Shown piece by piece: positions 7,429 to 28,390 of a stretch of 64,000 bases of DNA. This DNA is from an uncultured Chitinophaga sp. (GTDB lineage Bacteria > Bacteroidota > Bacteroidia > UKL13-3): the NCBI GenBank assembly GCA_964545895.1, contig CAZJHS010000003.1, positions 4,421 through 68,420 on the forward strand. Reading direction: 5' to 3'. The notes under the pieces are model-generated. The model made no database searches, was not told where the DNA came from, and was given only the letters and a program-made list of their open reading frames with translations. The position numbers and the translations under genes are program-made. The first letter of the stretch is position 1. Each line of letters begins with the position of its first letter.

Positions 7429-7542
7429 CTTTATAAAACTAAATTTCGCTAATTGCGCAAGGCCCATTATATTTACGGCTTAAAGTATAGGCTTGGTGTA
7501 CTATCAAGCTACCTATTTTCGTTTTAGTATTATTATTTTTTA

Positions 7543-8907: not shown

Positions 8908-8913
8908 GCCCAC

Positions 8914-9882: not shown

Positions 9883-9891
9883 TAACAGCAC

Positions 9892-10494
9892 ATGAACAGA
9901 ACTTGGGCTATACTGTTATCAACTGTTTTTCATCCGGTATTTATTAACCTACTTAGTTTTATTTTAGTAATAGAACTTACCCCTTATTTACAAGCAGGAT
10001 TTACCCCAGAAGCCAAATGGTTTTATGTGCTGTATGTATTTATTACCACAGGCATGATTCCGTTATTTGTAGTAGTGTTGCGCAAAGCACTAGGGTTTAG
10101 TAAAAGCATTATGCTTGATCATGCCGATGACAGACACATACCTTACATTACAACTGCCATAGCCTATTTAATGGGCTACTACTTTTTTATTAAGCTAGGA
10201 GCGCCACATATTTTACAAGGCTACATGTTGGCCAGTGCCTGTATCATGGTATCTATACTTATTATTAATTTTTATACCAAAATTAGCGCACATGCTACCT
10301 CGCTTGGTGCACTGGTAGGCTTACTTATGGCATTAAGTTCGTATGCTTTGGTTGATGTACGCATTTACCTGGTAGTAACCTTAATTTTAACTGGCCTAAC
10401 CTGCGTAGCTCGCTTGGCATTGCAAGCACACACCCACCAACAAATATACTGGGGTGCTTTTATTGGGTTTATGATGATGTGGTTGGTGATGTGA
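9892..10494 (+). CDS. Polytopic membrane protein (possibly PAP2-like)
   Basis: 200 aa with about 6 TM helices. SAHAT...ARLALQAHTH weakly resembles PAP2 motifs. Its last 21 codons are duplicated at 13181-13247. Confidence 0.6.
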   Translation: MNRTWAILLSTVFHPVFINLLSFILVIELTPYLQAGFTPEAKWFYVLYVFITTGMIPLFVVVLRKALGFSKSIMLDHADDRHIPYITTAIAYLMGYYFFIKLGAPHILQGYMLASACIMVSILIINFYTKISAHATSLGALVGLLMALSSYALVDVRIYLVVTLILTGLTCVARLALQAHTHQQIYWGAFIGFMMMWLVM

Positions 10495-10498
10495 TTTT
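10432..10498. repeat. Direct repeat DR1a (67 bp; 3' end of the membrane-protein gene)
   Basis: acccaccaacaaatatactggggtgcttttattgggtttatgatgatgtggttggtgatgtgatttt matches 13181-13247 at 66 of 67 positions. Confidence 0.95.
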
Positions 10499-10841
10499 AT
10501 ATTGCGAACAAACTAATAGCCAATCCCAACATTTTTATTCTGCTTTCATCATCACATTTTTCTAGTGAAATGATAAAATCGCTCCAGGTAGAAATGGTGT
10601 AATTAAAAGTTATACCACCACCCGCAAGATCCATAACCAACTGTTTATCGCAGTCTAATACATCACAAATTTCAACAAACTGTTGAAGCGGAACAACCTT
10701 TAATTGCCCATTTTCTAATTTAGAATACACGCTGCGCGTAATACCACATTTGTGCGCCACATACTCTTGTTTAAGGGCTTTGCGTTGCCTAATTAATTTA
10801 AGCAGCAAACAAATATTGTTATAGTAGGCTTGTTTGTTCAT
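10497..10841 (-). CDS. XRE-family helix-turn-helix transcriptional regulator
   Basis: It has the HTH_3 pattern LIRQRKALKQEYVAHKCGITRSVYSKLENGQ. I prefer the ATG at 10841 to the TTG at 10862 given in the ORF track. Confidence 0.8.
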   Translation of the reverse strand: MNKQAYYNNICLLLKLIRQRKALKQEYVAHKCGITRSVYSKLENGQLKVVPLQQFVEICDVLDCDKQLVMDLAGGGITFNYTISTWSDFIISLEKCDDESRIKMLGLAISLFAI

Positions 10842-10875
10842 GGAGTATAATAGGTTAAACAAGTTTAATAAAAAT

Positions 10876-10890
10876 GTGCATCACATGCAC
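10876..10890. promoter_or_regulatory. Perfect 6-3-6 palindrome (candidate XRE operator) in the divergent promoter region
   Basis: gtgcat-cac-atgcac lies immediately upstream of the XRE gene. A palindromic gtgcac follows at 10905-10910. Confidence 0.35.
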
Positions 10891-11040
10891 CATATGTTCA
10901 TATTGTGCACGCGATTTTACTTCAAGTAATGCCAAACCAATAATAGTTTTGAGTTGAGTTTACAAAGTGTTACTGCAGAGCATTATTGAAACTTACGGAT
11001 AGCCGAAAACGGATTAGAGTAGGCAATAAATAAATTTAAT

Positions 11041-11448
11041 ATGAAAAAAGTAATTTCATTGTTATTAACAATCATGTCAGGAGTAATGTATGGTTATGGA
11101 CAAACAACATATGTTGTTGAAAACGGAGTAACATACACAAGGATTTTCACAATTCAAGAGTACCAGTCATTAGGGTTAATGGTTGAAGGAGAAGAAGTGG
11201 CTGAAGCTGCAAGAAAGAAGAAATCAGGAACAATTTTGTGGTGTAAAAAAGGTTATGGGTGCTGTTTGTCATCAAGAATTGAAATAGATGGAAATGGTGG
11301 AATTACCGCTATGACTGTTGTTGCCCAAGTTGATGATGAAGGGAATGCGGTACAAGAAACAAGTGGAATCTTTGCTTATTATAATTCAGAATTAGATGAA
11401 GTTATTTATCGTGTTACATCAACACCACCAGCTGTAATCGCAAATTAG
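11041..11448 (+). CDS. Small secreted protein with a WCKKGYGCC cysteine motif
   Basis: 135 aa with a signal-like N-terminus (MKKVISLLLTIMSGVMYGYGQ). An acidic EGEEVAEAA stretch is followed by RKKKSGTILWCKKGYGCC. I recognise no family. Confidence 0.6.
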   Translation: MKKVISLLLTIMSGVMYGYGQTTYVVENGVTYTRIFTIQEYQSLGLMVEGEEVAEAARKKKSGTILWCKKGYGCCLSSRIEIDGNGGITAMTVVAQVDDEGNAVQETSGIFAYYNSELDEVIYRVTSTPPAVIAN

Positions 11449-11458
11449 TATTTAAATA

Positions 11459-11489
11459 ATGCCAACAATTAAATTGTTGGCATTTTATT
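11459..11489 (+). terminator. Hairpin terminator/attenuator between the small gene and the 557-aa gene
   Basis: Stem gccaacaat / attgttggc followed by attttatt, 11 nt after the stop at 11448. Confidence 0.55.
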
Positions 11490-11502
11490 CTTATTTTTAT
11501 TT

Positions 11503-13176
11503 ATGAAACGACTATTATTTTTATTGATTTGCTTTAATCAGTTTAATGTAAACGCTCAGTTTACTGAAAAATTTTATCATTTGGATACTTATGCTGCTGA
11601 AGCAAGTTTTGATTCATTGATACGAAATGAAATTCAAACTCATGATAGCTTGTCAGAGAGCTACTATCTCATAACCTATCCCATATTGGCTGGTGCTACT
11701 AGTTGGGTTCCTCAATTTATCAGGATATTTAATAAAATAAAAAACACAAATAATGATATTGTTATACTCTACTATCTAAATGGGGGATTACGAGAGAAAG
11801 ATATTCCTTTATTTATGAAGGAAAAATTGAAAATGACAGATGCAGACATGAAAAAAGTGAAAACTATTTTTAATGATGAACTTTATACAACCATAAGTAA
11901 TGGGAGAAACTTGGTTAGGCTGCAATATTATTTTAGAAGAAAATTATACTATGATGAGGCGGGAAAATGGCATGATGTTGCAGCAACAAATTTGCCAGAA
12001 GAGAAAATAACTATTAAACAAATAAATAAAATTCAATTAAAAGAAATTGACTCATTGCTCCTATTTGAAAGAGACCAAATTTTTCCTTTTAAAGAAGATA
12101 AATTACTTATTTTAAGTGATGCAAAAAATGAAATCCTAGAACTTGATGTTAATTCAGGAGAAGTAAAACCATTTATCTCAATAAATAAGGTATTTAACGC
12201 TACTGATATATATTGTAAGTATTTTGCGAATGGAGACACCTTAGCTTGTAACTATGCAAAAAAATTGGAACACAAAGTTACTTCAATTGGTAGGCAAACA
12301 TTAAAAATTGATGGAGTTAAAAAAGTGGATGATTTTCTATATCTGTCAGGGGGAATTGAAGCATTTGTTCAAGACAAAAAAGATTATACATTTAAAAATG
12401 AAGAGGGAGAAAAAGTTACTATTGAAGCGAGTGAACCTTCTACATCCTATTTTGGCTTAATATTTAAATACAACTTAATTACTAAGCAATGTGAAATATT
12501 TAGGTTAGAGGAGTTGCCCGAAACTCGGAAAGATTTTCCATTCATTTATCCAGATTGTGGACTTTTTATGAAACAAGATACCATTGTTGCTGGCGTGAAT
12601 ACATGGCATAAAAAAGGTTTAAACACATTTAATTTAATTAATCTAATACCCAAAGATGGCAGCTATAAACCAGCTAATAAATTGGCACCATTAGAGATAA
12701 AATCACCACTATTGGCAGATAATTACAACAAAAGTTTTTTTTATACATTTAATGAACAGCAATACTTTTCCATCAACTTTAGTAAACACATTTACTTAGT
12801 TGGCAGAGAAAAACCACAATCTAGTTTATATGGTAATGGCAGCTCCCCATACAGTATCGAAAAAGTTCCTGACTTTGTGGAGGACACTTCTTCATCACTA
12901 TTGGTAAACTTTTCTATACACGACATGAAGCCAATTTTTAATAACAGGTACTTACTAACTTATTGTGATTTTAAAGGGCAACCTATTTTCGAATTAAAAA
13001 ATCGGATGTTAAAAACCGTTGACATAATAGATGCAAAAAGTATTAAAGGGCTTGAGCGCTATTATTCAAACAACTATAGAATTGATTTACTAATTGATAA
13101 CGATAAGATATATTATAAGAGTATTGATAATGGTGAAATGTTTCTAAATGTATTTTCTATCCTACCAGTCAACTGA
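11503..13176 (+). CDS. Secreted hypothetical protein (N-terminal thioredoxin-like segment without CxxC, then a beta-rich region)
   Basis: 557 aa with a signal peptide (NQFNVNAQ). The segment YYLITYPILAGATSWVPQFIRIFNKIKNTNNDIVILYY resembles the CxxC segment of the 5723-7366 product. It looks AT-rich. Confidence 0.7.
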   Translation: MKRLLFLLICFNQFNVNAQFTEKFYHLDTYAAEASFDSLIRNEIQTHDSLSESYYLITYPILAGATSWVPQFIRIFNKIKNTNNDIVILYYLNGGLREKDIPLFMKEKLKMTDADMKKVKTIFNDELYTTISNGRNLVRLQYYFRRKLYYDEAGKWHDVAATNLPEEKITIKQINKIQLKEIDSLLLFERDQIFPFKEDKLLILSDAKNEILELDVNSGEVKPFISINKVFNATDIYCKYFANGDTLACNYAKKLEHKVTSIGRQTLKIDGVKKVDDFLYLSGGIEAFVQDKKDYTFKNEEGEKVTIEASEPSTSYFGLIFKYNLITKQCEIFRLEELPETRKDFPFIYPDCGLFMKQDTIVAGVNTWHKKGLNTFNLINLIPKDGSYKPANKLAPLEIKSPLLADNYNKSFFYTFNEQQYFSINFSKHIYLVGREKPQSSLYGNGSSPYSIEKVPDFVEDTSSSLLVNFSIHDMKPIFNNRYLLTYCDFKGQPIFELKNRMLKTVDIIDAKSIKGLERYYSNNYRIDLLIDNDKIYYKSIDNGEMFLNVFSILPVN

Positions 13177-13180
13177 TATT

Positions 13181-13247
13181 ACCCACCAACAAATATACTG
13201 GGGTACTTTTATTGGGTTTATGATGATGTGGTTGGTGATGTGATTTT
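13181..13247. repeat. Direct repeat DR1b (67 bp)
   Basis: Second copy of the 3' end of the membrane-protein gene. The single mismatch (10456 g vs 13205 a) would change Ala to Thr. Confidence 0.95.
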
Positions 13248-13377
13248 GTTTATTGGTTAAGCCATACTAATGACTTAAAAAAATCATAATTTACATTGTG
13301 CACATCCATGCGTAATTAAGATTAAAAAACAATAATTAAATTTGAGTTAAGCCATTGGCCAAGCTAAAATTTATACT

Positions 13378-16300
13378 ATGAACCTAAGAGCCCTAATTAC
13401 TTTACTTCTATTACTACCATTAGGTGTTTGTGCGCAGCAATTTACTGATGCAACAGTTATTGGGGGATTAGGTGGCCAAGGCGTAAACAATATTTATCAT
13501 GATAATATTGGAAACAAATATGTGTTGCTTTTCTCAGACAAGCCAATTACAATTGATAGCTCGGGAACCCCGATTACTATAACTAGTAATTCAAGAGAGT
13601 ATGCGCTCATAAAGTATTCTAATAAAAATAAGTATTTACACCACATAAGTATTAAACGAGTTTGGCCAAATAGTAGTTTTGTTGTTTCATTTACCTCCCA
13701 AAACGACCTTCTGCTTTCTTGCTCTTTTAATCATCGTGATACCATAGAACTTTATCATTCCAACAGATTATTATATAAACAGTTAATTATCAGAAATGGA
13801 ACTCCACCTTTAGCTCGTAACATTGCAGTTTTCATTACTAAAATTAGCTCAAGTGGGCAGTTCTTATGGACCTCGTTCATCAATAAATTAAACGCCAATT
13901 ACACTCAACAAGGTGCAATTGAAGTTGGCGTTTATTGCCACTCCGATACTGCTATTTATGTTAGTTTTAGTAGTGACCAATTAACAAATAGCATTGATAC
14001 TATTTTAGTAACTAATAACACAAATCAATCCGATACTATTTTTTCCAATAAGGTATCAATCATTGTTAAACTTAATCAACAAGGCAAGTTACTTACCTAT
14101 ATCGAACCGCTTAAATCTTTAAAACATTTTCAACAAGATTCAGCACTTATAAGAACATTTAAAATAGCTAAAATTAATAACAATATTTACTTCGTATTAA
14201 ATGCAACAATTACAACTCCAGATAGTATTGTTGGATTAAGTCAAACCACACCAATTGATACCGGCACTGTTTATTTACTTTTTAAAATGAACCTTACAGA
14301 TAGCATAGTTTGGGCAAAAGAAATAGTAGTAAATCATACCGGACCACAAGTACAATATCCAATTATTGACTTGAGTTCTGATACGGTGAATAATCATTTA
14401 CTTTTAGCTATTGATTTTGACCCGTATCGCAACGAAATGAAATTGTTTAGTTCCAACGCAAGCTTCGGAACTTATTTGAGCAAAATTGATGAACAAGGGA
14501 ATCCGGTTTGGAGCGAATTTCTGAACAACATTAGATACCCTACCTACAAAAAAAACTATACTAATAAACAATCCGTTCTAATTGGAGAAACGGTCTATCC
14601 AAATGGATATTTTCAGCATTATTTACCATACAACCAACTTGGCATTCGAACAACTTTTATTGCTTTTCAAGATAGCATGAACAGGTTTTTTAATGCACAA
14701 AGCATTCACGCTAATCAAGTAACCTTCAGCAGCACCTTATCAATATCAGGCATATCTATTAGTCCAAATGGTAAAGTAGCAGTTGGTGGTTCATTTTTGG
14801 ACAGCATCTCATTACCCTGTAGAACTATCCAAGCCACACTTGATTACAGCGACTACGGACAAAAACTATCTGATGGCTTTTTATTAGAATACAGCCCAAT
14901 ATTGGCAATTGATACTGCTGTTTGTAAAAGAATGATATCGCCTAGCGGTAAATACACTTGGGATAGTACTGCCTATTATTTTGATACCATACCTAATAAA
15001 TTGGGCTGCGATAGTACCCTATTGTTTTATGTGAAGGTAATGCAAGATAAAGTTTCAATTGACACTACTGTTAAAGTAAGCATGCAATCGCCAAGTGGTA
15101 AATATATTTGGGATAGCACCGCAACCTATACCGATACCCTGACTAATACTTTTGGATGTGATAGTATACTTACTTTTAATGTAAAGGTGTTACAAAACAG
15201 CACTTTTATTGACACTTCGGTTTGTTTGTTTTTTAAACTTAGCACAAGTTTAAAAGCATTTTACCAAACAGGTAATTTTATTGATACCCTAACCAACCGC
15301 TTGGGGGGCGATAGTATTGTTTACATTAAACTTACCATACTTAAAAGTACTGCAATTATTGATACCTCGTTTTGCAATAAAATACTAAGCCCTAGTGGTA
15401 AGTTTTGGTTAAACAATACAGGCGCGTATACCGATACATTAATGAACAAGCATAATTGTGATAGTATAATCGCCATTAGGTTTACACGCTTACCCATGAT
15501 GGATACAATTCGGCTATCTGCATGTAAACCATTAGGCAGCCCTAGTGGTAAGTTTGTTATGAATGAAACCCGTTGGTATACCGATACATTAGTGAGTAGT
15601 AAAGGTTGCGACAGCATACTACAAATTGACTATACGCAAATACGTATTACCGATACCATTGTTTTAGCCAATTGTAATGCGGCTTTAAGTCCAAGCAATA
15701 AATTTGTAATGCAACAAAGCGGCTGGTATACCGATACCCTTATAACCACCAATGGTTGCGATAGTATAATACGTATAAATTTTACGCTTTTAAAATCAGC
15801 TAGTAGTATTGTGCTGGTTGCTTGCGATAGCCTTATATCGCCTAGTGGTAAATTAGTTTTTAATGCACCTGGAGTTTATACCGATACAATAACAAATGCT
15901 GCAGGTTGTGATAGTATTATTACCATTAATTTAACTTTTTCTAATTCGCAAATAAGCGTTTCAAAATCAAATGATATTAGTTGCGAAAACCAAAGCGCTG
16001 TATTAACCGCATCGGGTGGTAGTGTTTATGTTTGGCAACCATCAACAGGGTTATCAAACACGCAAATTAGCAATCCCATTGCTAACCCCCACCAAACTAC
16101 TCAATACACAGTAATTGCTACTGATGCCTACGGTTGTAAACTTTCAGATACGATATCGGTTTATGTAAATATATTAGATAGTGTTAACAATATACCAAAT
16201 GTAATTACACCAAATAATGACGGATTAAACGACTGCATTTCGGCAGAAAATATCGCTCAATTTAACACTTGCTCATTTGTTATTTTATCGCGCTGGGGTA

Positions 16301-16458
16301 ATGTTGTTTGGCAAACCAACAATCCTAAAAATAATTGGTGCGGCACTACCGAAAACGGACAAGAAACAGCCGAAGGAACATACTATTATATACTTAAAGG
16401 CACAACGCTTTGTAATCAAAAAATTAATAGTACGGGTACAATTACAGTTATTAGGTAG
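13378..16458 (+). CDS. Large secreted protein with a T9SS type B (gliding-motility CHU_C) C-terminal sorting domain
   Basis: 1026 aa with a signal peptide. It contains seven 50-aa Cys-containing repeats. The C-terminus is IPNVITPNNDGLNDC...GTYYYILKG...TGTITVIR. Confidence 0.85.
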   Translation: MNLRALITLLLLLPLGVCAQQFTDATVIGGLGGQGVNNIYHDNIGNKYVLLFSDKPITIDSSGTPITITSNSREYALIKYSNKNKYLHHISIKRVWPNSSFVVSFTSQNDLLLSCSFNHRDTIELYHSNRLLYKQLIIRNGTPPLARNIAVFITKISSSGQFLWTSFINKLNANYTQQGAIEVGVYCHSDTAIYVSFSSDQLTNSIDTILVTNNTNQSDTIFSNKVSIIVKLNQQGKLLTYIEPLKSLKHFQQDSALIRTFKIAKINNNIYFVLNATITTPDSIVGLSQTTPIDTGTVYLLFKMNLTDSIVWAKEIVVNHTGPQVQYPIIDLSSDTVNNHLLLAIDFDPYRNEMKLFSSNASFGTYLSKIDEQGNPVWSEFLNNIRYPTYKKNYTNKQSVLIGETVYPNGYFQHYLPYNQLGIRTTFIAFQDSMNRFFNAQSIHANQVTFSSTLSISGISISPNGKVAVGGSFLDSISLPCRTIQATLDYSDYGQKLSDGFLLEYSPILAIDTAVCKRMISPSGKYTWDSTAYYFDTIPNKLGCDSTLLFYVKVMQDKVSIDTTVKVSMQSPSGKYIWDSTATYTDTLTNTFGCDSILTFNVKVLQNSTFIDTSVCLFFKLSTSLKAFYQTGNFIDTLTNRLGGDSIVYIKLTILKSTAIIDTSFCNKILSPSGKFWLNNTGAYTDTLMNKHNCDSIIAIRFTRLPMMDTIRLSACKPLGSPSGKFVMNETRWYTDTLVSSKGCDSILQIDYTQIRITDTIVLANCNAALSPSNKFVMQQSGWYTDTLITTNGCDSIIRINFTLLKSASSIVLVACDSLISPSGKLVFNAPGVYTDTITNAAGCDSIITINLTFSNSQISVSKSNDISCENQSAVLTASGGSVYVWQPSTGLSNTQISNPIANPHQTTQYTVIATDAYGCKLSDTISVYVNILDSVNNIPNVITPNNDGLNDCISAENIAQFNTCSFVILSRWGNVVWQTNNPKNNWCGTTENGQETAEGTYYYILKGTTLCNQKINSTGTITVIR
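14923..15972 (+). repeat. 7 x 150-bp in-frame tandem repeat (C..SPSGK[YF]..W....YTDT..N..GCDSI)
   Basis: Units start at Cys codons from 14923 to 15823, with an average period of exactly 150 bp. The third unit (CLFFKLSTSLKAF...GGDSI) is degenerate. Confidence 0.85.
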
Positions 16459-16518
16459 CTAGTTTAATTTTGCCTATCATTATTTAATATTATAAACCCA
16501 AACTCATAACACCTTTTA

Positions 16519-16624
16519 CATCCATGCCTTTATCTAAAACCATTATTACTTTTATATTTAGCATTTGCAGCTTCTTGTTTCTTTCGTGCGGAAAATTGTA
16601 CCTAAAAGCTACTGGTGTAAAACC
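16519..16624. repeat. Direct repeat DR2a (106 bp; copy of the 5' end of the lipoprotein gene at 18343)
   Basis: Matches 18338-18443 at 105 of 106 positions, with a constant offset of 1819 bp. Confidence 0.95.
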
Positions 16625-16628
16625 ATAA
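16524..16628 (+). pseudogene. Truncated duplicate of the lipoprotein gene 5' end (signal peptide/lipobox only)
   Basis: MPLSKTIITFIFSICSFLFLSCGKLYLKATGVKP followed by a stop. Homology to the 18343 gene ends abruptly at 16624. Confidence 0.7.
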
Positions 16629-16720
16629 ACGTTACTGATTTTGACATGGGCTTATACATTGTACGTTTAGTGATAGACGACCAAACCGTTGCTAATACAA
16701 TACTCAATTATTCAAATTAA
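16628..16720 (+). pseudogene. 3' remnant of a T9SS C-terminal sorting domain gene
   Basis: Translates as NVTDFDMGLYIVRLVIDDQTVANTILNYSN plus stop. It resembles the last strands of the CTDs elsewhere in this window (GLYYLKINTPKGVIVKKIVKD, GIYFVKFTL...). It has no upstream body and keeps its own terminator. Confidence 0.55.
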
Positions 16721-16733
16721 TTTTATAATTTCG

Positions 16734-16767
16734 AAACACCGCGTATTATAAAATACGCGGTGTTTTT
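16734..16767 (+). terminator. Rho-independent terminator of the remnant gene
   Basis: Stem aacaccgcgtat / atacgcggtgtt followed by ttttt. Confidence 0.7.
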
Positions 16768-16778
16768 ATTTAACTCCC

Positions 16779-18296
16779 ATGAAAAAAAATTGGCTATTAC
16801 TAGTAATTATATTCTTTACCCAATTGTTAAAGGCGCAAAATACACAGTTGTTTCACAATAGGGATAGTACTAGCAGCAGAGTTATACTTTTATCTACTGG
16901 CTCTGATAATAGTTCACTATATAGTTTAAGTTGGCACTTACCAATTGATTCGATTCAGGATAATAATCGATTTTATTATAAGATAAAAAAAATTGACACA
17001 TCGGGAAATTTATTAGCGGCAAACGAAATTTATAAGAATGGAAAATTAAACGCCAGTTATCAACCAAGTACACCAAATCAAACTGACTTTGTTATTGTTG
17101 AAAACAGTGACACCTCAGAAAACTCTGTATACTACATAAACTATATTAAAAGTAATTTAAAAGTTGATAGTTTTATTTTACCGTTAATTGGTAAAACCCC
17201 ATATCTGTTTACCTATTGCAAACACAATGATAAGCTAATCATCATTTCATCAGACAGTAGAACTCTTGGAAACAAGGCATACGTAACCATTGCAGATACA
17301 CTTGGTAATGAAATTAAAACACAAAGATTCCTTTACGAATACTTTTATAATCAAACCAACCAAATAAGCATTACTCCGCTATGCTTGATTAGCGATGGAA
17401 ATGGAGGATTTATATCTGGTGGATGGTATGATACAGCTTCACAAGAAACCAAAATAAACTTGTTTAGAATTGATAGTTTGGGAAATAAAACTTGGGAGTA
17501 TAAAGAAACACGGATTGGAGGTTCTTTTATAAAAGGCATGCAGCTATTGCCTGATAAAACCATTTTAGCTTATGGAGCTTATGGAGATTTAATGTACTTG
17601 GCCAAGTTTAGTCAACAAGGTCAATTACTTAACGAAAATTTTTATTATCCAGGTGGTTTTATCGATCGTACAAGTGGCCGTTGCAATATTATTAATGTTA
17701 AAATAATTGATGGATATATATATGCCGTTGGTGGATCGCACAATATGTTTAAAGCACTTAATACATACACCGATTTGGGTACGCTTTTAAAAACAGACTT
17801 AGATGGTAAACCCATTTGGGCCAAGCAATTTGGCAATTATTATGGTTACAATATTCTAGATCAAATTTACCAAACATCAAATAGCCGATTGTTGTTGGCA
17901 GGGCTTGGTGTTGACAGCACACAAATGCCTTTACATGGAGTAAGCTGGTATGTAAGTACTGATACTGCTGCTAACGAAAACCTGCCTTGGTGCCAATTAG
18001 TAAATGTTGAGCGGTATTATCCATTTACGGGTATTAACGAGGTAAGTAGTTTGGGTTCAATGATACAAGTATATCCAAACCCAACAAATGGTGAGTTAAC
18101 CATTAAAAATCCCTTACAACTAGCTATTAACCAAATTCAATTTTATGACGGAAATGGTACACTTTGCCACACCCAATTATTTGATGAGCCAAACGCCCAG
18201 TTTAATATTGATGTTACTTATTTAAAACAAGGATTGTATTACTTAAAAATAAACACACCTAAGGGTGTTATAGTAAAAAAAATTGTAAAAGATTAA
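16779..18296 (+). CDS. T9SS type A sorting domain-containing secreted protein
   Basis: 505 aa with a signal peptide. The CTD is IQVYPNPTNGELTIKN...GLYYLKINTPKGVIVKKIVKD. Confidence 0.85.
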   Translation: MKKNWLLLVIIFFTQLLKAQNTQLFHNRDSTSSRVILLSTGSDNSSLYSLSWHLPIDSIQDNNRFYYKIKKIDTSGNLLAANEIYKNGKLNASYQPSTPNQTDFVIVENSDTSENSVYYINYIKSNLKVDSFILPLIGKTPYLFTYCKHNDKLIIISSDSRTLGNKAYVTIADTLGNEIKTQRFLYEYFYNQTNQISITPLCLISDGNGGFISGGWYDTASQETKINLFRIDSLGNKTWEYKETRIGGSFIKGMQLLPDKTILAYGAYGDLMYLAKFSQQGQLLNENFYYPGGFIDRTSGRCNIINVKIIDGYIYAVGGSHNMFKALNTYTDLGTLLKTDLDGKPIWAKQFGNYYGYNILDQIYQTSNSRLLLAGLGVDSTQMPLHGVSWYVSTDTAANENLPWCQLVNVERYYPFTGINEVSSLGSMIQVYPNPTNGELTIKNPLQLAINQIQFYDGNGTLCHTQLFDEPNAQFNIDVTYLKQGLYYLKINTPKGVIVKKIVKD

Positions 18297-18298
18297 CG

Positions 18299-18325
18299 GC
18301 TACTCACACACAAAATAAAAGTCTC
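18299..18325. repeat. Direct repeat DR3a (27 bp; copy of the 3' end of the FkbM methyltransferase gene)
   Basis: gctactcacacacaaaataaaagtctc matches 19020-19046 at 26 of 27 positions. On the minus strand it still encodes DFYFVCE-stop, and the mismatch is synonymous (GAC vs GAT). Confidence 0.85.
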
Positions 18326-18337
18326 TTCATAAAACTT

Positions 18338-18443
18338 CATCCATGCCTGTATCTAAAACCATTATTACTTTTATATTTAGCATTTGCAGCTTCTTGTTTC
18401 TTTCGTGCGGAAAATTGTACCTAAAAGCTACTGGTGTAAAACC
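18338..18443. repeat. Direct repeat DR2b (106 bp)
   Basis: Copy that forms the 5' end of the lipoprotein gene. See DR2a. Confidence 0.95.
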
Positions 18444-19006
18444 TTTTAAGCCAGTAATAGAACAGCAATTAATTAGTTACTTAAGCAAACAAGGTGTTAA
18501 ACAAGAGCGTATTTATGAAGTAGATTCTGTTCGTTTTAACGAGTTGCTTACATGATACATTAGTTTACACTAAGCCCAACTGGTGGATTCAAAATCATAT
18601 TCAACCTATACAAACCGTATGTTTTGATAATGCTACTAAAAAGCCACTGTATGCGTATTTTAATTGTATTGCAGAAAGTAAAGGGTTAACTCAATTTACT
18701 TGGAATAAATTTCAGGAGCTAGAATCGTTTCCGCCCAAAGAATATACCTCATACCGTTGGATAGACACCTTATTTACATTAAATGAATTAACCAATACAT
18801 TTGTTGATTTTAAAGGAAATTCAATTGTGTTGAACAATAACGAGAAAAAGTATACTGTATTTATTTACTACTCATTATTTGTAGAGAAGCAAGCCAACAA
18901 TTTGATAAGAGAAACGCTTACTCACCTCAACACTTTTATACCAAACGACTATAATGTGTACTTTATCAATTTTGATAATGCACTGTATCAGCTAAGTACT
19001 AATTAG
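18343..19006 (+). pseudogene. Lipoprotein gene interrupted by a frameshift
   Basis: Frame 0 runs from 18343 to the stop at 18553-18555 and includes the lipobox FLSCG. A second frame, offset +1, is open from 18524 to the stop at 19004-19006, adding about 150 aa (LHDTLVYTKPNWWIQNH...NALYQLSTN) with no start codon of its own. Confidence 0.6.
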
Positions 19007-19019
19007 GTTATACCCAACA

Positions 19020-19046
19020 GCTACTCACACACAAAATAAAAATCTC
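19020..19046. repeat. Direct repeat DR3b (27 bp; authentic 3' end of the methyltransferase gene)
   Basis: See DR3a. Confidence 0.85.
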
Positions 19047-19767
19047 CTTGTTCGTAGTTTAAGGCATTGGCACGTGTAAGTTCGCTTAGCTTACCTTGTT
19101 GCAGTTGCATAATTTTGTAGCCCAAAGGCAAAAACAAATCAAAAATAGTTGCTCTATTTTCGGGGCTGCTAATTTCCATTTGTATGGTAGGTTTAAACTT
19201 AGCAATTGTTTTTATAAAATGAGGCATCAAAAAAACTTCATAGCCTTCTACATCGCACTTTAAAAAATCAAACCTGGTTAAATGGGCAAATAATTCGTCA
19301 GGAATTTGCATGGCAACTTGGTAAGTATGCATGTTAGCCTCCTGCGCGTGGCTATCAATAACCTTTGTTAAACCGTGTCTAAAAACCCCATCAACCATGG
19401 GTGTGCCCATTTGTATGGTTTTATGCTCGCCACCTAATGCAGTTTGGTGCAGGGTAATATTACCTAAACCAAATTGAGTTACATTTTTTCTGAAAATGCT
19501 GGCAAATAAATCAACTGGTTCAACCGCATGTACATGTCCATTTGCACCTGCATATTGCGATAAAAACACCGAGTAGTAACCTACATTAGCACCAATATCA
19601 ACACAAACAAAACCTGGCTTTACTAATTGTTGTAAAAAGAATAATTCGGGATATTTTTTCTTTAAAAATCCCGAGCGTATTAAACGAATATAAACCTCGC
19701 TAACCAAGGCCAAGTATTTCTGATGTCCTAATACATCAAGCAGTAATGCGCGTAATTGTTTTTCCAT
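19021..19767 (-). CDS. FkbM-family methyltransferase
   Basis: 248 aa with the SAM-binding motif VCVDIGANVGYYS and FLKCDVEGYE. Confidence 0.8.
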   Translation of the reverse strand: MEKQLRALLLDVLGHQKYLALVSEVYIRLIRSGFLKKKYPELFFLQQLVKPGFVCVDIGANVGYYSVFLSQYAGANGHVHAVEPVDLFASIFRKNVTQFGLGNITLHQTALGGEHKTIQMGTPMVDGVFRHGLTKVIDSHAQEANMHTYQVAMQIPDELFAHLTRFDFLKCDVEGYEVFLMPHFIKTIAKFKPTIQMEISSPENRATIFDLFLPLGYKIMQLQQGKLSELTRANALNYEQGDFYFVCE

Positions 19768-19788
19768 GTATGTGTAAACCCTTTGGGC

Positions 19789-20040
19789 TTATTTCAATTC
19801 TTCATAATCCACGTACTCGCCAAGCTTTTTATCGGTTGGTTTTTTGGTGGTGTTGTTTATGTTAGGGTTAATGGTAATTTTTCCTTCGGGCTCGTTGGTT
19901 GAGTTGCTTTGGTTATAATGATGGTGGTGCGTATCGTATCTATACACTTTAGTTTTAATGGTGTTGCCACCCATTAACTTACCAAATACCAAACGCGATA
20001 ACACGTAAAACAAAAACAGGTATAATAAAAACTTTATCAT
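19789..20040 (-). CDS. DUF4834-like small membrane protein
   Basis: 83 aa with an N-terminal TM helix and a C-terminal GEYVDYEELK tail, as I recall for DUF4834. Confidence 0.6.
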   Translation of the reverse strand: MIKFLLYLFLFYVLSRLVFGKLMGGNTIKTKVYRYDTHHHHYNQSNSTNEPEGKITINPNINNTTKKPTDKKLGEYVDYEELK

Positions 20041-20096
20041 GTGCTTAAATTATGCGGTGGCAAAGGTACACTTTCTTGCCTAGCAATCAACCCCCA

Positions 20097-20927
20097 TTAA
20101 CCTATAATATTGGCATGTTTGCTGGCTACTGCGTGTCCTAAAAAGTTACCTGCTTGTGCGTTAAAATTCTTAGTATCATCAGTAGTTAAGTATTGGTGTG
20201 TACCACCTTTGCTGCAATACTGTTCCAACTCTGGGTGACGATTCAAGTAATCAACCAAACTATTTGCCACTATTTGCCCTTGGGTTAAAATAGTAATGTG
20301 TGCAGGAGTGTATTTACGAATCTTGTCAACCAATAAAGGATAATGAGTACAGCCCAATAAAATAGTATCAATTTGGGGTGATGATGCCAACAAAGAATCA
20401 ATGTGTTTTTGCACAAAATAATCGGCACCAGCGCCTGTATGCTCGTTGTTCTCTACCAACGGAACCCACATGGGGCAAGCTTCTTGAAACACCTGTACTT
20501 GCGGATAAAACTTATTTATCTCAACCACATACGATTGAGAAATAACTGTGCCTTTGGTAGCAAACACCCCCACTTGATTGGTTTTGGTGTATTTACCTAC
20601 AATTTCGGTTGTTGGACGTATTACACCTAAAACACGCAAATGATTTTCGAGCAGCGGTAAATCCTTTTGCTGTATAGTGCGCAATGCCTTTGCCGAGGCT
20701 GTATTACAAGCCAGTACCACCAAGCTACATCCTTGGTTAAACAAATGCTTTACACATTGTAAGGTGTACTCGTAAACGGTATCAAAACTACGTGTACCGT
20801 ATGGTGCACGAGCGTTATCGCCCAAATACAAGTAATCGTATTGGGGCAGTGTATGTATAAACTCCTTTAATACAGTTAATCCACCATAACCGCTATCAAA
20901 CACACCAATTGGTCCGGGTTTTATCAT
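20097..20927 (-). CDS. murI: Glutamate racemase
   Basis: Motifs PIGVFDSGYGGLTV, VLACNTASA and LGCTHYP. I prefer the ATG at 20927. The ORF-track start at 20966 is a TTG. Confidence 0.9.
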   Translation of the reverse strand: MIKPGPIGVFDSGYGGLTVLKEFIHTLPQYDYLYLGDNARAPYGTRSFDTVYEYTLQCVKHLFNQGCSLVVLACNTASAKALRTIQQKDLPLLENHLRVLGVIRPTTEIVGKYTKTNQVGVFATKGTVISQSYVVEINKFYPQVQVFQEACPMWVPLVENNEHTGAGADYFVQKHIDSLLASSPQIDTILLGCTHYPLLVDKIRKYTPAHITILTQGQIVANSLVDYLNRHPELEQYCSKGGTHQYLTTDDTKNFNAQAGNFLGHAVASKHANIIG

Positions 20928-21215
20928 ACCGCAACTTATACCAATTGTAATTATTTTCAAGTGCAAACTAGAAAATAATTTTACAATGGTAATGCCGATG
21001 CTATACCGATGAGAAATAAGTAATGGTTCAATTTCGTTTCACATCATTGTACCAAACTTCTTTCCTATCGGCATATACCACTGTAGGATTTATATCATTT
21101 AAATAATTTATAAATCACATTGGTATTACATGAAAATAGTTCAATAAGGCCATAGCAGAGATTGGACTATATTGAATGTGCCTTCGGTATTAAGGCAAAG
21201 TTGGGTTGATAGCAA

Positions 21216-21250
21216 TAAAAAAGTTCGCACAACACCAGGTTATGCGAACT
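21216..21250 (-). terminator. Rho-independent terminator of the endonuclease gene
   Basis: Stem agttcgca / tgcgaact, with a T-run on the minus strand, just downstream of the stop at 21277. Confidence 0.6.
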
Positions 21251-21276
21251 CTATTTATGGTTTTTATTAAACTTAT

Positions 21277-23793
21277 TTATTCTATAATCACACGCTTGGT
21301 AGCCACGCCACCATTGGTAATTACTTTAACAATGTACATGCCTTTTTGCGTTAGGTTTAATTGGGTTGATGTGGTTTGCTCCACCAATTTACCAGTAATA
21401 TCATATACATCAACACCCAATACTTTAAGTGCAGCAGGTAAAGCAATATTTACCACACCTGTACTTGGCACCGGATACATATTTACCAAATGATTAATAG
21501 TACTGTTTTCGGTTAAACCAACATACTGTTTAAAGTTAACCATTACACTGTCGTAAGCACGCATTTGAGGAGCTTTAGCAGCGTTAAACTCGCGTACATA
21601 AATTACCACATTGTTTTTGCTCATGTTAGGTACTTTAAATGAGTAGATGTTATTATTTTTAATAGCACCAACAATTGGAGTTACTATTATTGCAGAAGAG
21701 CTACTATCAAAATACACATATTGTAAAACTACAGAATCAACCATATTGCTATTCCAAACAATGCTGTAAGTTGAATCTGCATTTAACATAGCATTAGGTG
21801 CAGGTGCAGTAATATTTATATCAACTACCGTATCAACAGCAATGTAAGTCATCGTGCTAAAATCAATTTTTCTTGTCCACTCTGGGTGGTCAATAAATGG
21901 ATTACGATTTTTTTGTACAGTATAAATGTACTCGTTGCGCGCAATCTCTAATGCACTTGGAGGATCTTGTTGGTGCCATTGTAATAACACATTTAAATCT
22001 TGACTTGATGGCAATCTCCATGCGTTACCATTTGCACCATCATAACAAGTTAACATGTAAAGTAAAGCACGTGCGGCATCTCCTTTTTGTTCGTTGCGTG
22101 GTTCGTAAACTGTATTTCCTTTGCTATCAGTTCCTAATTTTCCTTCACCAGTAGGTGAGGTATATGTAGCATTAACTACAACAGCTAAAGGATAATTGCT
22201 ACGCTTGCCATTGCCTACAAGTTGGTCGGCAGGGAACAAGTGGTGTAAATCGTTATACTCTGGCAATTCCTTACCATTAGCGCCATTTGGCCAAGTAGAA
22301 ATACTACGTGTTGGCATCCAGCTTTGGCAAAAAGTATGCTCGCGTGTTTGTGTGCCAGGATTACCTGATTGTCCAGTCCACCATGTAAATGGCTCGTTGT
22401 ATACATAAGGAGCACCAGTATACACACAAGTAACGGCTTTTTTTCCGCCTGTTGTATCGCGCGATAAGTAGTTATTTACAATAACAGACAAATAACTACT
22501 GTAAAAAATAGTATCGTGCGAGTTAATCTTATTATGCAACGCAGTAAGGAAGTTATTAGCTTGCGGATCGATACCGTTGTAGTAATTTCCTGGCTCGCCA
22601 TTTAAAGTGGTTACACTTGAAGTTGGAACATTGCTGGTGTTGTAATTCTCAAATCCAGCAGGGCCATTAACCGAGTATGCAGCAAAGCTGTAATTGGTAT
22701 TTGCTAAAATGTAATTAGGTTTAATTGCGGTAGTATCTGCACCAATATACATTACTTGCGCACCACCAATATAATCTCCTCTTTGGTAAGTTACACCATC
22801 AACTGGTGCTTCGGTAAGTGCACCTCCCACTTTTCTCAATATCAAATATTTTTCGGTTTGGGTTGATGGATAGCTAACCGTTAATGTTTGTGTGCGCACA
22901 TTGCTCACATTAATAGAAGGAACAGCTGCAGGCTCGGTTGCATATTGGCCTCCAATAGCATAAAGATTAATTAAAAACGGGCTACGCTCTGTATCCGAAG
23001 TATATAACTTAACAGTGGCATAACGAGAACCATTTGCACTAGGTGTAAAGTAAACCGAGAAAGTATCGGTTCCATTATTAAATGGTGTAATACTATCAAA
23101 AGTGCCTACTGCAAAATCAGCAGCATGTGTGCCACTTAATACAATACTATCTATTTTTAAATTAGCCCCTGTACCTACATTTTGTATGGTAAAATTTTTA
23201 CTTGCGCTATTACCAAAAGTGTAAGTAATACCGTTTGATAAAGTGGTGGTATTTTGTTTAACCAACAAACCAACAGCAGCAGCAGGTGCCGCGTTAACCG
23301 TAATCAAATCAACGGCCATATTACCTCCACCTCCAGAACCACCCGGAAGCTTTATTGTGTAATAAAACCTTACCCAACGTGTGGTCGATTTTAATGAATC
23401 GGTATACATTGGGTCGTTAAAGTTGGTTGCAGTTGTTGCTTTTGATGTGAAGCTACGCATTGTTGTCCAAGTGGTACCATTATCACTCTCTTGAATATCA
23501 AACTGACCTGCCCAAGCATTACCTGCATTTTGTGGACTTAAATAATAAGTTAACGTACCCGGTTTATCAGCAAAGTTGATGGTTATATTTTCACCTGTCG
23601 CATCTAATCTGCCCGAAAGTGCATCGTTTTTACCAAATGCATAGGTTAAGTTTCCGTTAGTACCTACATTGTAACCCCAACCAGTTGGTGGAGCTGAAAC
23701 ACTTGGAGTTGTGAAGCCCCAGCTTGTAGGCAACACTGCCTGTGCAAATGCCAACATGGGCATCATGCATAATGAAAGTATTAGTTTTCTCAT
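21277..23793 (-). CDS. Secreted endonuclease I family nuclease with a T9SS C-terminal sorting domain
   Basis: Endonuclease I motifs are present (REHTFCQSW, DLHHLFPAD...GKRSNYP, YEPRNEQKGDAARALLYM, RNPFIDHPEW). The CTD is MYPVPSTGVVNI...GMYIVKVITNGGVATKRVIIE. The signal peptide starts at the ATG at 23793. Confidence 0.85.
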   Translation of the reverse strand: MRKLILSLCMMPMLAFAQAVLPTSWGFTTPSVSAPPTGWGYNVGTNGNLTYAFGKNDALSGRLDATGENITINFADKPGTLTYYLSPQNAGNAWAGQFDIQESDNGTTWTTMRSFTSKATTATNFNDPMYTDSLKSTTRWVRFYYTIKLPGGSGGGGNMAVDLITVNAAPAAAVGLLVKQNTTTLSNGITYTFGNSASKNFTIQNVGTGANLKIDSIVLSGTHAADFAVGTFDSITPFNNGTDTFSVYFTPSANGSRYATVKLYTSDTERSPFLINLYAIGGQYATEPAAVPSINVSNVRTQTLTVSYPSTQTEKYLILRKVGGALTEAPVDGVTYQRGDYIGGAQVMYIGADTTAIKPNYILANTNYSFAAYSVNGPAGFENYNTSNVPTSSVTTLNGEPGNYYNGIDPQANNFLTALHNKINSHDTIFYSSYLSVIVNNYLSRDTTGGKKAVTCVYTGAPYVYNEPFTWWTGQSGNPGTQTREHTFCQSWMPTRSISTWPNGANGKELPEYNDLHHLFPADQLVGNGKRSNYPLAVVVNATYTSPTGEGKLGTDSKGNTVYEPRNEQKGDAARALLYMLTCYDGANGNAWRLPSSQDLNVLLQWHQQDPPSALEIARNEYIYTVQKNRNPFIDHPEWTRKIDFSTMTYIAVDTVVDINITAPAPNAMLNADSTYSIVWNSNMVDSVVLQYVYFDSSSSAIIVTPIVGAIKNNNIYSFKVPNMSKNNVVIYVREFNAAKAPQMRAYDSVMVNFKQYVGLTENSTINHLVNMYPVPSTGVVNIALPAALKVLGVDVYDITGKLVEQTTSTQLNLTQKGMYIVKVITNGGVATKRVIIE

Positions 23794-24044
23794 AAAATAT
23801 TTCTGTGCTAAAAAAGCTGTGCAAGATAAACCTTTAGCATGCACAATTCCTTGATAATTAAATCAAATTATCATTAAATTTATGCAAACGGAGTTTTAAT
23901 TACTGCCAATTTTAAATGCTTCAGCATGATGCTCTTTGCTCAAACTATTACATTTTTGGCTTTGATTTTCAGACGTTTATTAAATTTATTGGAAATAGGT
24001 GTAACTTTACCTACCTCATTTGCGTACTACCATCGCCCCCAATA

Positions 24045-24530
24045 ATGACAGTAGCGGAATACAATACATGTGTTGATTTATTTGCTGACGGCCTATATAG
24101 GTTTGTGGTGAAGAATTGCCGCAACCAAGATATGGCGCAAGACGTGGTTCAGGACACGTTTGAAAAGTTATGGGTAAAGATAAACCACGTAGAATATGCA
24201 ACTGCTAAATCGTATTTATTTACTGCTGCCTATCATACCATGATTGATGCTATTAGAAAAGATAAAAAACATGCTGATATAACCGAAGAAAACCATGAGC
24301 ATTACAATACCGCAAGCCAATACACTGATGTAAAAAAAGTACTTAACATGGCACTAGCTAAGTTGCCCGAAATACAACGTGTGGTAATTACACTTAGAGA
24401 TTATGAGGGATATAGTTATGAGGAAATTGGACAAATAACAACTTTAACCGAAAGCCAGGTAAAGGTATACATATACCGAGCCCGCGTATTTTTAAAAAAC
24501 TATTTGGTAAGTCTTGATAGCGTAATATGA
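24045..24530 (+). CDS. ECF-type RNA polymerase sigma-70 factor
   Basis: It has region 2 (DVVQDTFEKLW) and region 4 (VITLRDYEGYSYEEIGQITTLTESQVKVYIYRAR). I prefer the ATG at 24045. Confidence 0.85.
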   Translation: MTVAEYNTCVDLFADGLYRFVVKNCRNQDMAQDVVQDTFEKLWVKINHVEYATAKSYLFTAAYHTMIDAIRKDKKHADITEENHEHYNTASQYTDVKKVLNMALAKLPEIQRVVITLRDYEGYSYEEIGQITTLTESQVKVYIYRARVFLKNYLVSLDSVI

Positions 24531-25486
24531 ATTTAGACAGAACAACATACGAGCTTTTTATTATTGATTACTTGGAGGGCCAATTGGATGCTGTTCAGGT
24601 ATCGGAGCTATTGTTGTTTTTAGAGCAAAACCCTGATTTAAAAACCGAATTTGAAGGTATTGAACAGGTGTATTTACACAAAGAGGAAATACTAAGTATT
24701 GACAAAAAATCGCTTAAAAAGCCTGAGCAAATAAACATCACTCCTGCTATAGAAAACTTGATGGTGGCCGTACTCGAATCAGATGCCACACCTGCAGAGC
24801 AAGCGCATTTATCAAACTTAACAGCAACTTACCCAAACCTGCGTATCCAACAACATTGGCTTGCGCAAACCATAACCGAAGCCGATTTAGCTGTAGTTTA
24901 TCCACGCAAAAAATCGCTTAAAAAATACAGCATTGGCAAATGGTACAAAATATCGGCTGTTGCAGCAGCACTTATTGCCAGCCTTGTAATTGCAGTGTTT
25001 TACAATACACCAATTACGCCTAATCCAATTGCCCATGTAAAGCCAGTATCTAACCCAAAAAATGTTGCACAAAACAAAGCTGAAACCCTACCCGTTTTAG
25101 CATCATTAACTACACAAAAAGAGATTAAACATACCCGTAAATCAATTTATGCAAACAAGCTAACAGCACCTATAAAAACAGCACCTGCTAGCTGCACATT
25201 AATTGCTACAAGCAAAAAGCCAATGCTAACTGCTGCCAATAAGCTGGAGTTTAAGGTACAAAACACGCAAGTAATACTTTTAGCTGCGCATAAAAATACT
25301 GATGATGATTTTATAAACGCAAACGAATGGCTTAAAAACAAAGTGGCCGAAACAACCAGTCCAAACTCATTACTGGCCCGCTTTAACCAAATTACTGGAG
25401 CAGGAATAATTTTAGAAAAAGATTCTTTTAGCGGAAAGTTTAAACGATTTGAAATTACAAGTATAGGTTTAGCTTTAAATAAATAA
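24527..25486 (+). CDS. Putative anti-sigma factor / membrane protein
   Basis: Its start overlaps the sigma gene stop (ATGA). It has one TM helix (ISAVAAALIASLVIAVFY). The call rests on position. Confidence 0.55.
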   Translation: MNLDRTTYELFIIDYLEGQLDAVQVSELLLFLEQNPDLKTEFEGIEQVYLHKEEILSIDKKSLKKPEQINITPAIENLMVAVLESDATPAEQAHLSNLTATYPNLRIQQHWLAQTITEADLAVVYPRKKSLKKYSIGKWYKISAVAAALIASLVIAVFYNTPITPNPIAHVKPVSNPKNVAQNKAETLPVLASLTTQKEIKHTRKSIYANKLTAPIKTAPASCTLIATSKKPMLTAANKLEFKVQNTQVILLAAHKNTDDDFINANEWLKNKVAETTSPNSLLARFNQITGAGIILEKDSFSGKFKRFEITSIGLALNK

Positions 25487-25546
25487 TTTTCAACTCCGCT
25501 GTAACTTTTTACATCACCTAACCGTATTACAGTAAATATTAAAACC

Positions 25547-26980: not shown

Positions 26981-27004
26981 TTCAATCAATAAACCTTATA
27001 GGCA

Positions 27005-27045
27005 AACGCCTATTGCTCTTTAAGTGGAGCAATAGGCGTTTTTTG
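27005..27045 (+). terminator. Rho-independent terminator
   Basis: 14-bp stem aacgcctattgctc / gagcaataggcgtt followed by ttttt. Confidence 0.75.
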
Positions 27046-27088
27046 TAATAAATTATCTGTTTGTAAATGCTTACTTTCGCATCAAATT

Positions 27089-28382: not shown

Positions 28383-28390
28383 CACGTAGT

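Follow-up and report, generated by a model that had tools for sequence, protein, structure and literature searches.

A near-perfect lipoprotein-gene repeat around a type IX secretion cargo gene in an uncultured Chitinophaga sp. probably marks an old recombination junction

A 64,000-nucleotide stretch of DNA from an uncultured Chitinophaga sp. (contig CAZJHS010000003.1 of assembly GCA_964545895.1, positions 4,421 to 68,420; hereafter the window, with positions counted from its first letter) carries two copies of a 106-nt direct repeat, made of the 5' end of a lipoprotein gene, on either side of an intact gene for a 505-aa cargo protein of the type IX secretion system (T9SS), which we call T505. 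Comparison with approximately 45 related loci, which were retrieved with T505, the lipoprotein gene, the neighbouring methyltransferase gene (M) and a 1026-aa protein encoded nearby as anchors and which are cited here by number (L009, L041 and so on), indicates that the repeat bounds a 1,819-bp presence/absence polymorphism. The history that we hold to be probable is one of an old illegitimate junction, after which the unit was gained, lost and refreshed by the homologous recombination of the host, without a dedicated recombinase.

The repeat and the unit that it bounds

As a preliminary description of this DNA had reported, positions 16519-16624 and 18338-18443 are identical at 105 of 106 positions with a constant spacing of 1,819 bp, and both the coordinates and the identity were reproduced. 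A search allowing up to 3 mismatches found only these two copies in the 64 kb, compared to 0 matches in 100 shuffled sequences and a chance expectation of 0. Similarity ends abruptly on either side of both copies and their outer flanks are unrelated to each other; the upstream copy keeps the native flank, the spacer that lies between a PAP2-like gene (P) and the lipoprotein gene in L009, while the downstream copy runs on into the native lipoprotein-gene body. The features concerned are as follows (coordinates, strand, description).

16519-16624, plus strand: upstream repeat copy (DR2a), an orphan 5' end of the lipoprotein gene that opens a stub open reading frame (ORF) and is of mosaic ancestry
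16625-16720, plus strand: Y', a C-terminal remnant (31 codons) of a lost T9SS cargo gene, in a frame different from that of the stub
16733-16766, plus strand: terminator-like hairpin, a 15-bp stem and then a T-run (-21.6 kcal/mol, z -7.2, by direct folding)
16779-18296, plus strand: T505, an intact 505-aa T9SS type A cargo gene with Por_Secre_tail and TIGR04183 matches
18295-18325, plus strand: M', 31 nt copied from the methyltransferase gene's 3' end, stop codon included (29/31 identical to 19016-19046)
18326-18337, plus strand: a 12-nt piece of the lipoprotein-gene leader, TTCATAAAACTT, which travels with M'
18338-18443, plus strand: downstream repeat copy (DR2b), in which the lipoprotein gene has its native start and from which (18338) homology to L009 continues again
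18343-19006, plus strand: the lipoprotein gene, 224 aa in relatives and a pseudogene here, with an 11-bp deletion between 18551 and 18552

The unit itself (16625-18443) thus consists of the remnant of a C-terminal domain (CTD), the hairpin, T505, M', the 12-nt leader and one copy of the lipoprotein 5' end; every part that the preliminary description had placed between the repeat copies is present, the methyltransferase-end copy measuring 31 nt where 27 bp had been given.

L060, from the window's species, is an exact empty site. It has the conserved border gene P, two further accessory blocks that we call X1 and X2 with a partial copy of P (P') between them, the spacer, a lipoprotein gene that is intact, and M. 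Colinearity with the window extends over 10741-16624 (99.3%) and then over 18327-20938 (98.1%), and L060 has a single copy of the repeat, so that the two alleles differ at the repeat by exactly one 1,819-bp unit. Occupied alleles were found in four other assemblies (L042, L058, L059 and L043), and in L058 the unit is present while X1 and X2 are absent. Alleles in related strains with only one of the two genes, for which the preliminary description had proposed to look, exist in both kinds: lipoprotein-only in L060 and L009, and 505-aa-only in L041 and L018, with both genes together in the window, L042, L058 and L059. In L041, which is of a different species and approximately 78% identical to the window in nucleotides across the unit, the unit is circularly permuted at the methyltransferase 3' end and flanked by M' and M, an arrangement that is compatible with a circular form of the unit and is no proof of one.

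The preliminary description had itself raised the possibility of an assembly artefact, in which a chimeric or collapsed repeat would join two co-occurring strains, and we consider this highly improbable. Several related strains are indeed in the samples (L003, L002), and Logan unitigs (k=31) break inside the repeat and alone cannot pair its in-edges with its out-edges, but all four repeat/flank joins of the window strain are present in such unitigs from two runs: L008 covers the passage from spacer to the beginning of the stub and has the v1 variant of the leader and the T variant; L001, derived from raw reads, runs from the stub end (GGTGTAAAACC/ATAAACG) through the CTD remnant, T505 and M' into the lipoprotein start with the G variant; and L002 runs from the repeat end into the lipoprotein-gene body. 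The sole alternative pairing of these joins would leave a free 1.8-kb circle. Moreover, the same gene order was assembled independently in L042 (k141_72661, 191 kb), L058, L059 and L043 (ENA, JGI and Logan records), from samples and record types other than those of the window strain's runs, and in L042 and L058 mis-joining is no concern, since the stub there can be told apart from the lipoprotein gene of its own strain.

The 106-nt repeat has no function of its own. The upstream copy had been described as an orphan 34-codon stub stopping at the homology boundary, which holds: the ORF (16524-16628, 34 codons with a signal peptide and lipobox) encodes MPLSKTIITFIFSICSFLFLSCGKLYLKATGVKP, reading MPLSK...LSCGKLYLKATGVKP, and ends at a TAA stop which was created by the junction and straddles that boundary. 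The idea that the stub is instead a conserved functional small ORF is unsupported, as its length differs among relatives (34 aa in the window against 28 in L042 and L058), its lipobox cysteine has been lost and its stop comes earlier in L041, and its stop in the window is made by the junction. The lipoprotein gene does have its native start in the downstream copy, as had been said, but it is broken here, a deletion of 11 bp (AAAAAAGAAAG) relative to L003 shifting the frame after codon 69. Logan contig L002 has this deletion too, and the gene is intact at 224 aa in L009, L042, L059 and L060. No Pfam, NCBIfam or PADLOC family was found for the lipoprotein, nor any fold match in the PDB despite a model confidence (pLDDT) of 81; the 224-aa family (P0001-P0015) is confined to this clade, with conserved motifs that include NHIQPxQ and FNCIAE.

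Within the unit, T505 has the hallmarks of a T9SS type A cargo protein, an N-terminal signal peptide (a hydrophobic N-terminus is seen in the sequence) and a sorting domain at the C-terminus (Por_Secre_tail, PF18962, residues 431-503, E 2e-12). Its AlphaFold model (pLDDT 66) is all-beta and its PDB propeller matches include CylK, YVTN and BtuG, and so it is predicted to be a beta-propeller followed by the T9SS sorting domain. Y' has a sub-threshold match to TIGR04183, the type A T9SS sorting domain (E 0.025, profile positions 43-67 of 72), the fragment being too short for a significant one. Remnants in the same place in relatives are 74-97% identical to it, and it is found in L058, L042 and L043 and in a longer form in L038 and L039; in L041 the protein match is weak and frame-broken (E 0.09) and homology there rests on nucleotide alignments. 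The remnant of L039 is truncated elsewhere than that of the window (approximately 51 aa joined to a 213-nt form of M'), and since the cut point differs in this way the unit has no fixed cassette end. The M' scar is shared with L042, L058 and L059, with a decayed form in L041. The 12-nt piece aligns with the native leader TCATAAAAC of L060 and L009, and also stands upstream of the stub in L041, L042 and L058.

The hairpin, which ends 12 nt 5' of the T505 ATG, was missed by a simple terminator scan and detected by direct folding. It is kept 5' of every T505 homologue and paralogue, with 3 compensatory pairs among 7 sequences, and its role may go beyond that of a terminator left by a dead gene; it could, for instance, act as an attenuator or as an element of the 5' untranslated region. 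Equivalents were seen in L018, L039, L041, L042 and L058, including one 5' of the T505 copy that in L018 lies directly after the PAP2-like gene. There would appear to be no room for a promoter of the unit after the hairpin, and by inference the unit sits in the window behind a captured lipoprotein promoter region; the lipoprotein gene follows T505 after 46 nt.

Age of the junction and possible origins of the unit

The join between the stub and the CTD remnant, AAACC/ATAAACGTTACTG (AAACC/ATAAACG), is identical in the window, L042 and L058, as is the join between M' and the lipoprotein leader, and L041, a different species with no intact lipoprotein gene, has the same lipoprotein end point with a 14-nt indel. 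The stubs of L042 and L058 have decayed, with 6 mismatches and 18 gapped or deleted nt relative to their own lipoprotein genes, compared to 1 difference in 101 for the window stub. The window stub has a leader (v1) and a T at codon 3 that match the P-lipoprotein-M allele of L009, and its interior carries the derived TGCAGCTTCTTG and GGTGTAAAACC of its own downstream lipoprotein gene (the TGCAGC variant), where L009, L060, L041 and the older stubs keep TGCTGT. From these derived variants it follows that the stub was overwritten after the junction had formed, up to the end of the homology, for which gene conversion or a crossover within the repeat would account. Since the junction is old and shared with decayed stubs, the 105/106 identity reflects later re-copying and not a fresh integration; the decayed stubs of L042 and L058 and the junction in L041 both run counter to reading the identity as a sign of recent insertion.

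Gene conversion is demonstrably active at the locus and T505 evolves as a mosaic, judging from the tracts that tandem T505 paralogues share in L018 (784 nt at 99%, 10791-11574 and 12401-13184) and L039 (228 nt at 97%, 403-630 and 2040-2267) and from the N-terminal third of T505 (window 16780-17372), which is only 70-90% identical to L042 against a background of 98-100%. We had considered a recent transfer of the left 9.6 kb of L042 (99.77% versus 93%), but a windowed identity profile showed a background of 98-100% throughout, with low identity confined to local hypervariable patches around the stub, in the N-terminal third of T505 and over the 5' third of an endonuclease gene.

The probable history may be set out as follows. 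The two novel joins of the unit, of lipoprotein position 106 to the tail of the T9SS gene and of the methyltransferase 3' end to the lipoprotein leader, would each have been made once by non-homologous joining between alternative alleles of the islet, one side of the exchange being homologous and the other not, as in homology-facilitated illegitimate recombination (HFIR) or unequal sister exchange. Strains have subsequently gained, lost and re-paired the unit, and this would have proceeded by general homologous recombination in patches of approximately 106-129 nt at the lipoprotein start and approximately 31 nt at the methyltransferase end, whether through one crossover with the unit in circular form or through two with linear DNA, which give identical products that the data do not separate. 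Lastly, the upstream patch, as the comparison of alleles shows, was recently overwritten with the strain's own lipoprotein sequence, which would be why the copies are 105/106 identical despite the age of the junction. A consequence of the repeat is that RecA-type recombination can remove the T505 unit or bring it back.

Microhomology at the position 106/Y' and M'(31)/leader joins amounts to approximately 0-4 nt at most, as measured against diverged relatives. An 11-nt microhomology, ATAAAAATCTC, was considered as the maker of the join between M' and the lipoprotein gene and rejected, as alignment of L060 and L009 puts the start of the leader at TCATAAAAC, and the ATAAA overlap belongs to a secondary join of spacer to M' in L058 and L042. 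The varied lengths of the scars, the shifting cut of the remnant and an 8-nt microhomology in L042 are read from the sequences as the marks of occasional non-homologous joins.

Several points weigh against this history. The order of events cannot be uniquely reconstructed, and no single linear history accounts for the alleles without extra steps of conversion or deletion; upstream of the stub L041 has M' and the 12 nt, L058 and L042 have only 11 nt of M', and the window has native spacer. No alpha-type allele with the window's exact stub was sampled, and so the donor of the overwriting sequence is taken to be the downstream copy in cis. Divergence in the right flank does not discriminate donor from recipient (0.75% for L042, 0.6% for L003, 1.2% for L059 and 1.3% for L060), and single-nucleotide polymorphisms in the flanks, tried for this purpose, were indecisive. 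Microhomology at the two founding junctions is a few nt at most, and judged only from diverged relatives, and we know of no natural competence or other route of DNA uptake in this uncultured lineage.

The preliminary description had proposed that a circular DNA integrated through the 106-bp homology. The topology, the empty site and the L041 permutation agree with this, but the decayed stubs and the overwriting speak against a fresh integration. In its strict (Campbell) form, in which a preformed 1,819-bp circle of stub, Y', hairpin, T505, M' and 12 nt recently entered an L060-like lipoprotein gene, we think the proposal rather unlikely. It would account for the single-crossover topology, with a native leader before the upstream copy and the unit's own M' and 12-nt leader before the downstream one, for the exact empty site in L060, and for the permutation of L041 at the methyltransferase 3' end, as integration through the other patch would give; single crossovers of circular molecules giving duplications of 109-950 bp are moreover documented in E. 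coli (PMC3240628). However, circles from L058 or L042 would carry a decayed stub (with its 18-nt deficit and GGAGTTAAACC end) where the window's upstream copy has GGTGTAAAACC, and a 1.8-kb circle with neither replication nor transfer functions lacks an evident route between cells and is unmatched, as a unit, in viral contigs, plasmids and phages. Nor does it explain the 11 nt of M' upstream of the L058 and L042 stubs, and the flank polymorphisms do not separate a donor from a recipient. The facts of the empty site and of L041 fit equally well with a linear double crossover from an occupied allele or the resolution of a former tandem. A tandem origin has been considered in its own right, in which unequal sister exchange in an allele ordered Y-hairpin-T505-M'-12nt-lipoprotein-M joined lipoprotein position 106 to the Y tail, and the upstream Y-T505 copy was later deleted at lineage-specific points to leave the stub. 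One illegitimate event would then be enough for the founding junction, tandem T505 paralogues occur in L018 and L039, and M' with the 12 nt precedes the stub in L041, as part of it does in L058 and L042, as expected of the end of a former upstream unit. We nevertheless judge it decidedly unlikely: the window stub is preceded by native P-lipoprotein spacer and not by M', which calls for an extra recombination with a P-lipoprotein-type allele, no allele with two full units so arranged was found, and such an origin covers the junction only, with later conversion still needed for the 105/106 identity. The whole unit is not arranged head-to-tail in the window, where only the 106-nt patch and the 31-nt M' are repeated, tandem T505 genes being found in other species only.

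A site-specific cassette (an island of a tyrosine or serine recombinase, an integron-like element or a transposon), mobilised in trans and with the repeats as attachment (att) sites or target duplications, has hardly any likelihood in our view. Integrative islands typically have direct repeats derived from a resident gene's end, the repeat DR1 duplicates the 3' end of P, and three cargo blocks are stacked at one place, all of which would suit it. However, as the preliminary description had noted, no recombinase accompanies the repeats: none was found among 44 window ORFs scanned with Pfam (10 in or next to the islet at 9892-23844 and 34 others, which are all ORFs of 110 aa or more from 29944 on except the three at 59749-60468, 60575-63496 and 63547-63897), nor through precomputed Pfam matches on related genes for 12 more (seven ORFs at 660-9882 through L011 and five at 23916-29911 through L002), and these checked ORFs include no transposase or integrase. 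Repeat lengths vary (31, 67, 106, 118 and 213 nt, from three genes) with no att core or motif common to the junctions; the CTD remnant is truncated variously by context; and the only inverted repeats reported to touch the region of the ends, I18 and I22, are 20-nt pairs of 75-80% complementarity with distant partners, none pairing the two ends of the unit. A duplication of 106 bp is also far longer than the target-site duplications of transposons. We have therefore rejected a transposon, integron or integrative island, on the grounds of the missing recombinase, att core and end-pairing inverted repeats, and equally an origin in a phage or plasmid, as T505 has no relatives in viral contigs and the unit has no DNA match in plasmid or phage collections.

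A bolder reading, which we consider unlikely, is that the unit is a recombinase-free "homology-arm cassette" that is excised as a circle and re-inserted by the host RecA at either gene. If true, the unit would carry short copies of both its neighbours (the lipoprotein 5' end and the methyltransferase 3' end) and be usable across the species complex, which would explain both the lipoprotein-gene site in the window and the permuted methyltransferase-gene site in L041; P', its longer counterpart P'' in L042 and the 213-nt M' would be the same device for other cargo blocks, and the whole would amount to a general, integron-like but enzyme-free shuffling of T9SS cargo genes.

The islet between P and M

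The unit is one of several blocks in the interval between P, which adjoins a MoxR gene, and M, both of which are syntenic in all relatives. The remaining features of the interval are listed below.

9892-10494, plus strand: P, a 200-aa PAP2-like membrane protein gene with a weak Pfam PAP2 match, the conserved left border
10432-10498: DR1a, the last 63 nt of P and 4 nt more
10499-13180: X1 block, with genes for an XRE-type helix-turn-helix (HTH) protein (10497-10862, minus strand), a 135-aa protein and a 557-aa protein
13181-13250, plus strand: P' (DR1b), an orphan copy of the last 67 nt of P and the first nucleotides of the P-lipoprotein spacer (66/67 identical to 10432-10498)
13251-16484, plus strand: X2 block, carrying a T9SS type B (CHU_C) cargo gene for a 1026-aa protein (13378-16458) and interrupting the native P-lipoprotein spacer
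16485-16518, plus strand: the last 34 nt of the native spacer (variant v1), directly upstream of the stub and identical to L009 4722-4755
19021-19767, minus strand: M, a 248-aa FkbM-family methyltransferase gene (Pfam Methyltransf_21 match), the conserved right border and the source of M'

At least seven architectures of the interval occur across the related loci, ranging from direct adjacency of the two border genes to the 7.8-kb stack of the window.

P-M, adjacent: L044 (window's species) and 8 other species
P-spacer-lipoprotein-M: L009, L017, L020, L037, L047
P-T505-T505-M: L018
P-HTH-178aa-lipoprotein-M: L011-L014
P-HTH-135aa-557aa-(M'-12nt-stub-remnant-hairpin)-T505-M: L041, a different species with no intact lipoprotein gene
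lipoprotein-M'(213 nt)-remnant-hairpin-T505-T505-like: L038, L039
P-X1-P'-X2-spacer-stub-remnant-T505-M'-12nt-lipoprotein-M: the window

In L044 (JACCDH010537191.1) P and M are convergent with 1 nt between their stop codons, M is 98% identical to that of the window, and the whole islet is absent, the lipoprotein gene included. L009, which is 97.5-98% identical to the window, has P, the spacer and the lipoprotein gene contiguous and lacks 10499-18337, all of which is therefore accessory relative to it. Scars at the locus measure 67 nt (P'), 118 nt (P'' of L042), 31 nt (M'), 213 nt (M' of L038 and L039) and 106 nt (the stub), and these partial copies of P, the lipoprotein gene and M mark the joins in a recombination hotspot between P and M.

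X1 is found in the window, L042, L060 and L041, is partial in L011-L013, and is absent from L009, L058 and L044. The window from the end of P through X1 (9891-13193) is approximately 88% identical in nucleotides to L041 (block 7045-9741), and the two larger X1 proteins are 95-97% identical in amino acids to those of L041 where its flanking core genes are only 73-81% identical, which suggests that the block may have been exchanged between species. DR1 brackets this HTH-135aa-557aa block and is a scar of the same type as the 106-nt repeat, its downstream copy P' aligning to L009 4621-4690. The 1026-aa protein of X2 has Pfam CHU_C and TIGR04131 matches, and the block is also in L042 and L060; close homologues of the protein were found only in this species (99%), the next best match being at 38%, and its gene contains an internal 150-nt (50-aa) periodic repeat at 14977-15934, with six copies detected. 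In L042 the third copy of the end of P (P'', 118 nt, 9578-9695) follows the 1026-aa gene, joined through the 8-nt microhomology TTAATTTT.

Beyond M, an 855-aa Endonuclease_1/T9SS gene (21277-23844, minus strand) is hypervariable in its 5' third and upstream (22161-24017), at 75-91% identity compared to 98-100% around it. Other T9SS cargo in the window comprises a 446-aa Laminin_G_3 protein with a sub-threshold CTD match (31795-33135) and a 508-aa CTD protein (54833-56359).

Significance and relation to known systems

This small site, in an uncultured freshwater Bacteroidia lineage, offers an unusually complete natural series, which runs from empty and occupied alleles to scars that have decayed or been refreshed and, in another species, a permuted form of the unit. 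It illustrates how strains that are almost identical gain, stack and lose genes for secreted and surface proteins with no help from mobile-element enzymes, and how stubs of flanking genes that remain from one event supply the homology for later ones. It also calls for caution in annotation, as gene conversion can refresh an old scar and an insertion with near-perfect repeats may therefore not be recent; the label of pseudogene fragment should be given to the frameshifted lipoprotein gene as well as to CTD remnants and orphan 5' stubs.

Short fragments of a resident gene also lie beside displaced modules in the orphan toxin/immunity modules downstream of cdiA and rhs, where they are usable as homology for recombination, and in these contact-dependent inhibition (CDI) and Rhs loci the retained fragment permits an in-frame swap of the protein tip. 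Unlike these, the window stub precedes an out-of-frame remnant and a hairpin, and therefore no fusion protein is made.

The products of Campbell integration and of HFIR, as established by experiments on naturally transformable bacteria and on E. coli conjugation (PMC3240628), resemble the islet in having an insert bounded by a partial duplication of a resident gene, one seamless and, as it appears for the islet, one novel non-homologous join, and no recombinase encoded by the element. They differ in that the islet event is deduced from natural alleles, that its founding junction is old and common to several strains and another species, that the repeat has been homogenised in one lineage and has decayed in others, and that several scars lie within one 7.8-kb islet.

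Homologous recombination in the flanks has been proposed as the route of additive gene transfer (PMC11375855) and of island replacement (PMC4033161), and the flexible genomic islands of aquatic bacteria described in those works share with the islet a fixed site between core genes, content that varies among close strains, a dominance of exposed or secreted cargo (here T9SS cargo and a lipoprotein) and near-identical flanks. In contrast to them, the islet is tiny (0 to approximately 8 kb), its alleles are stacked as well as swapped, and the stubs of its flanking genes and the internal lipoprotein gene act as extra patches of homology. The locus is thus a well-resolved instance of already known genome plasticity and not a new type of system.

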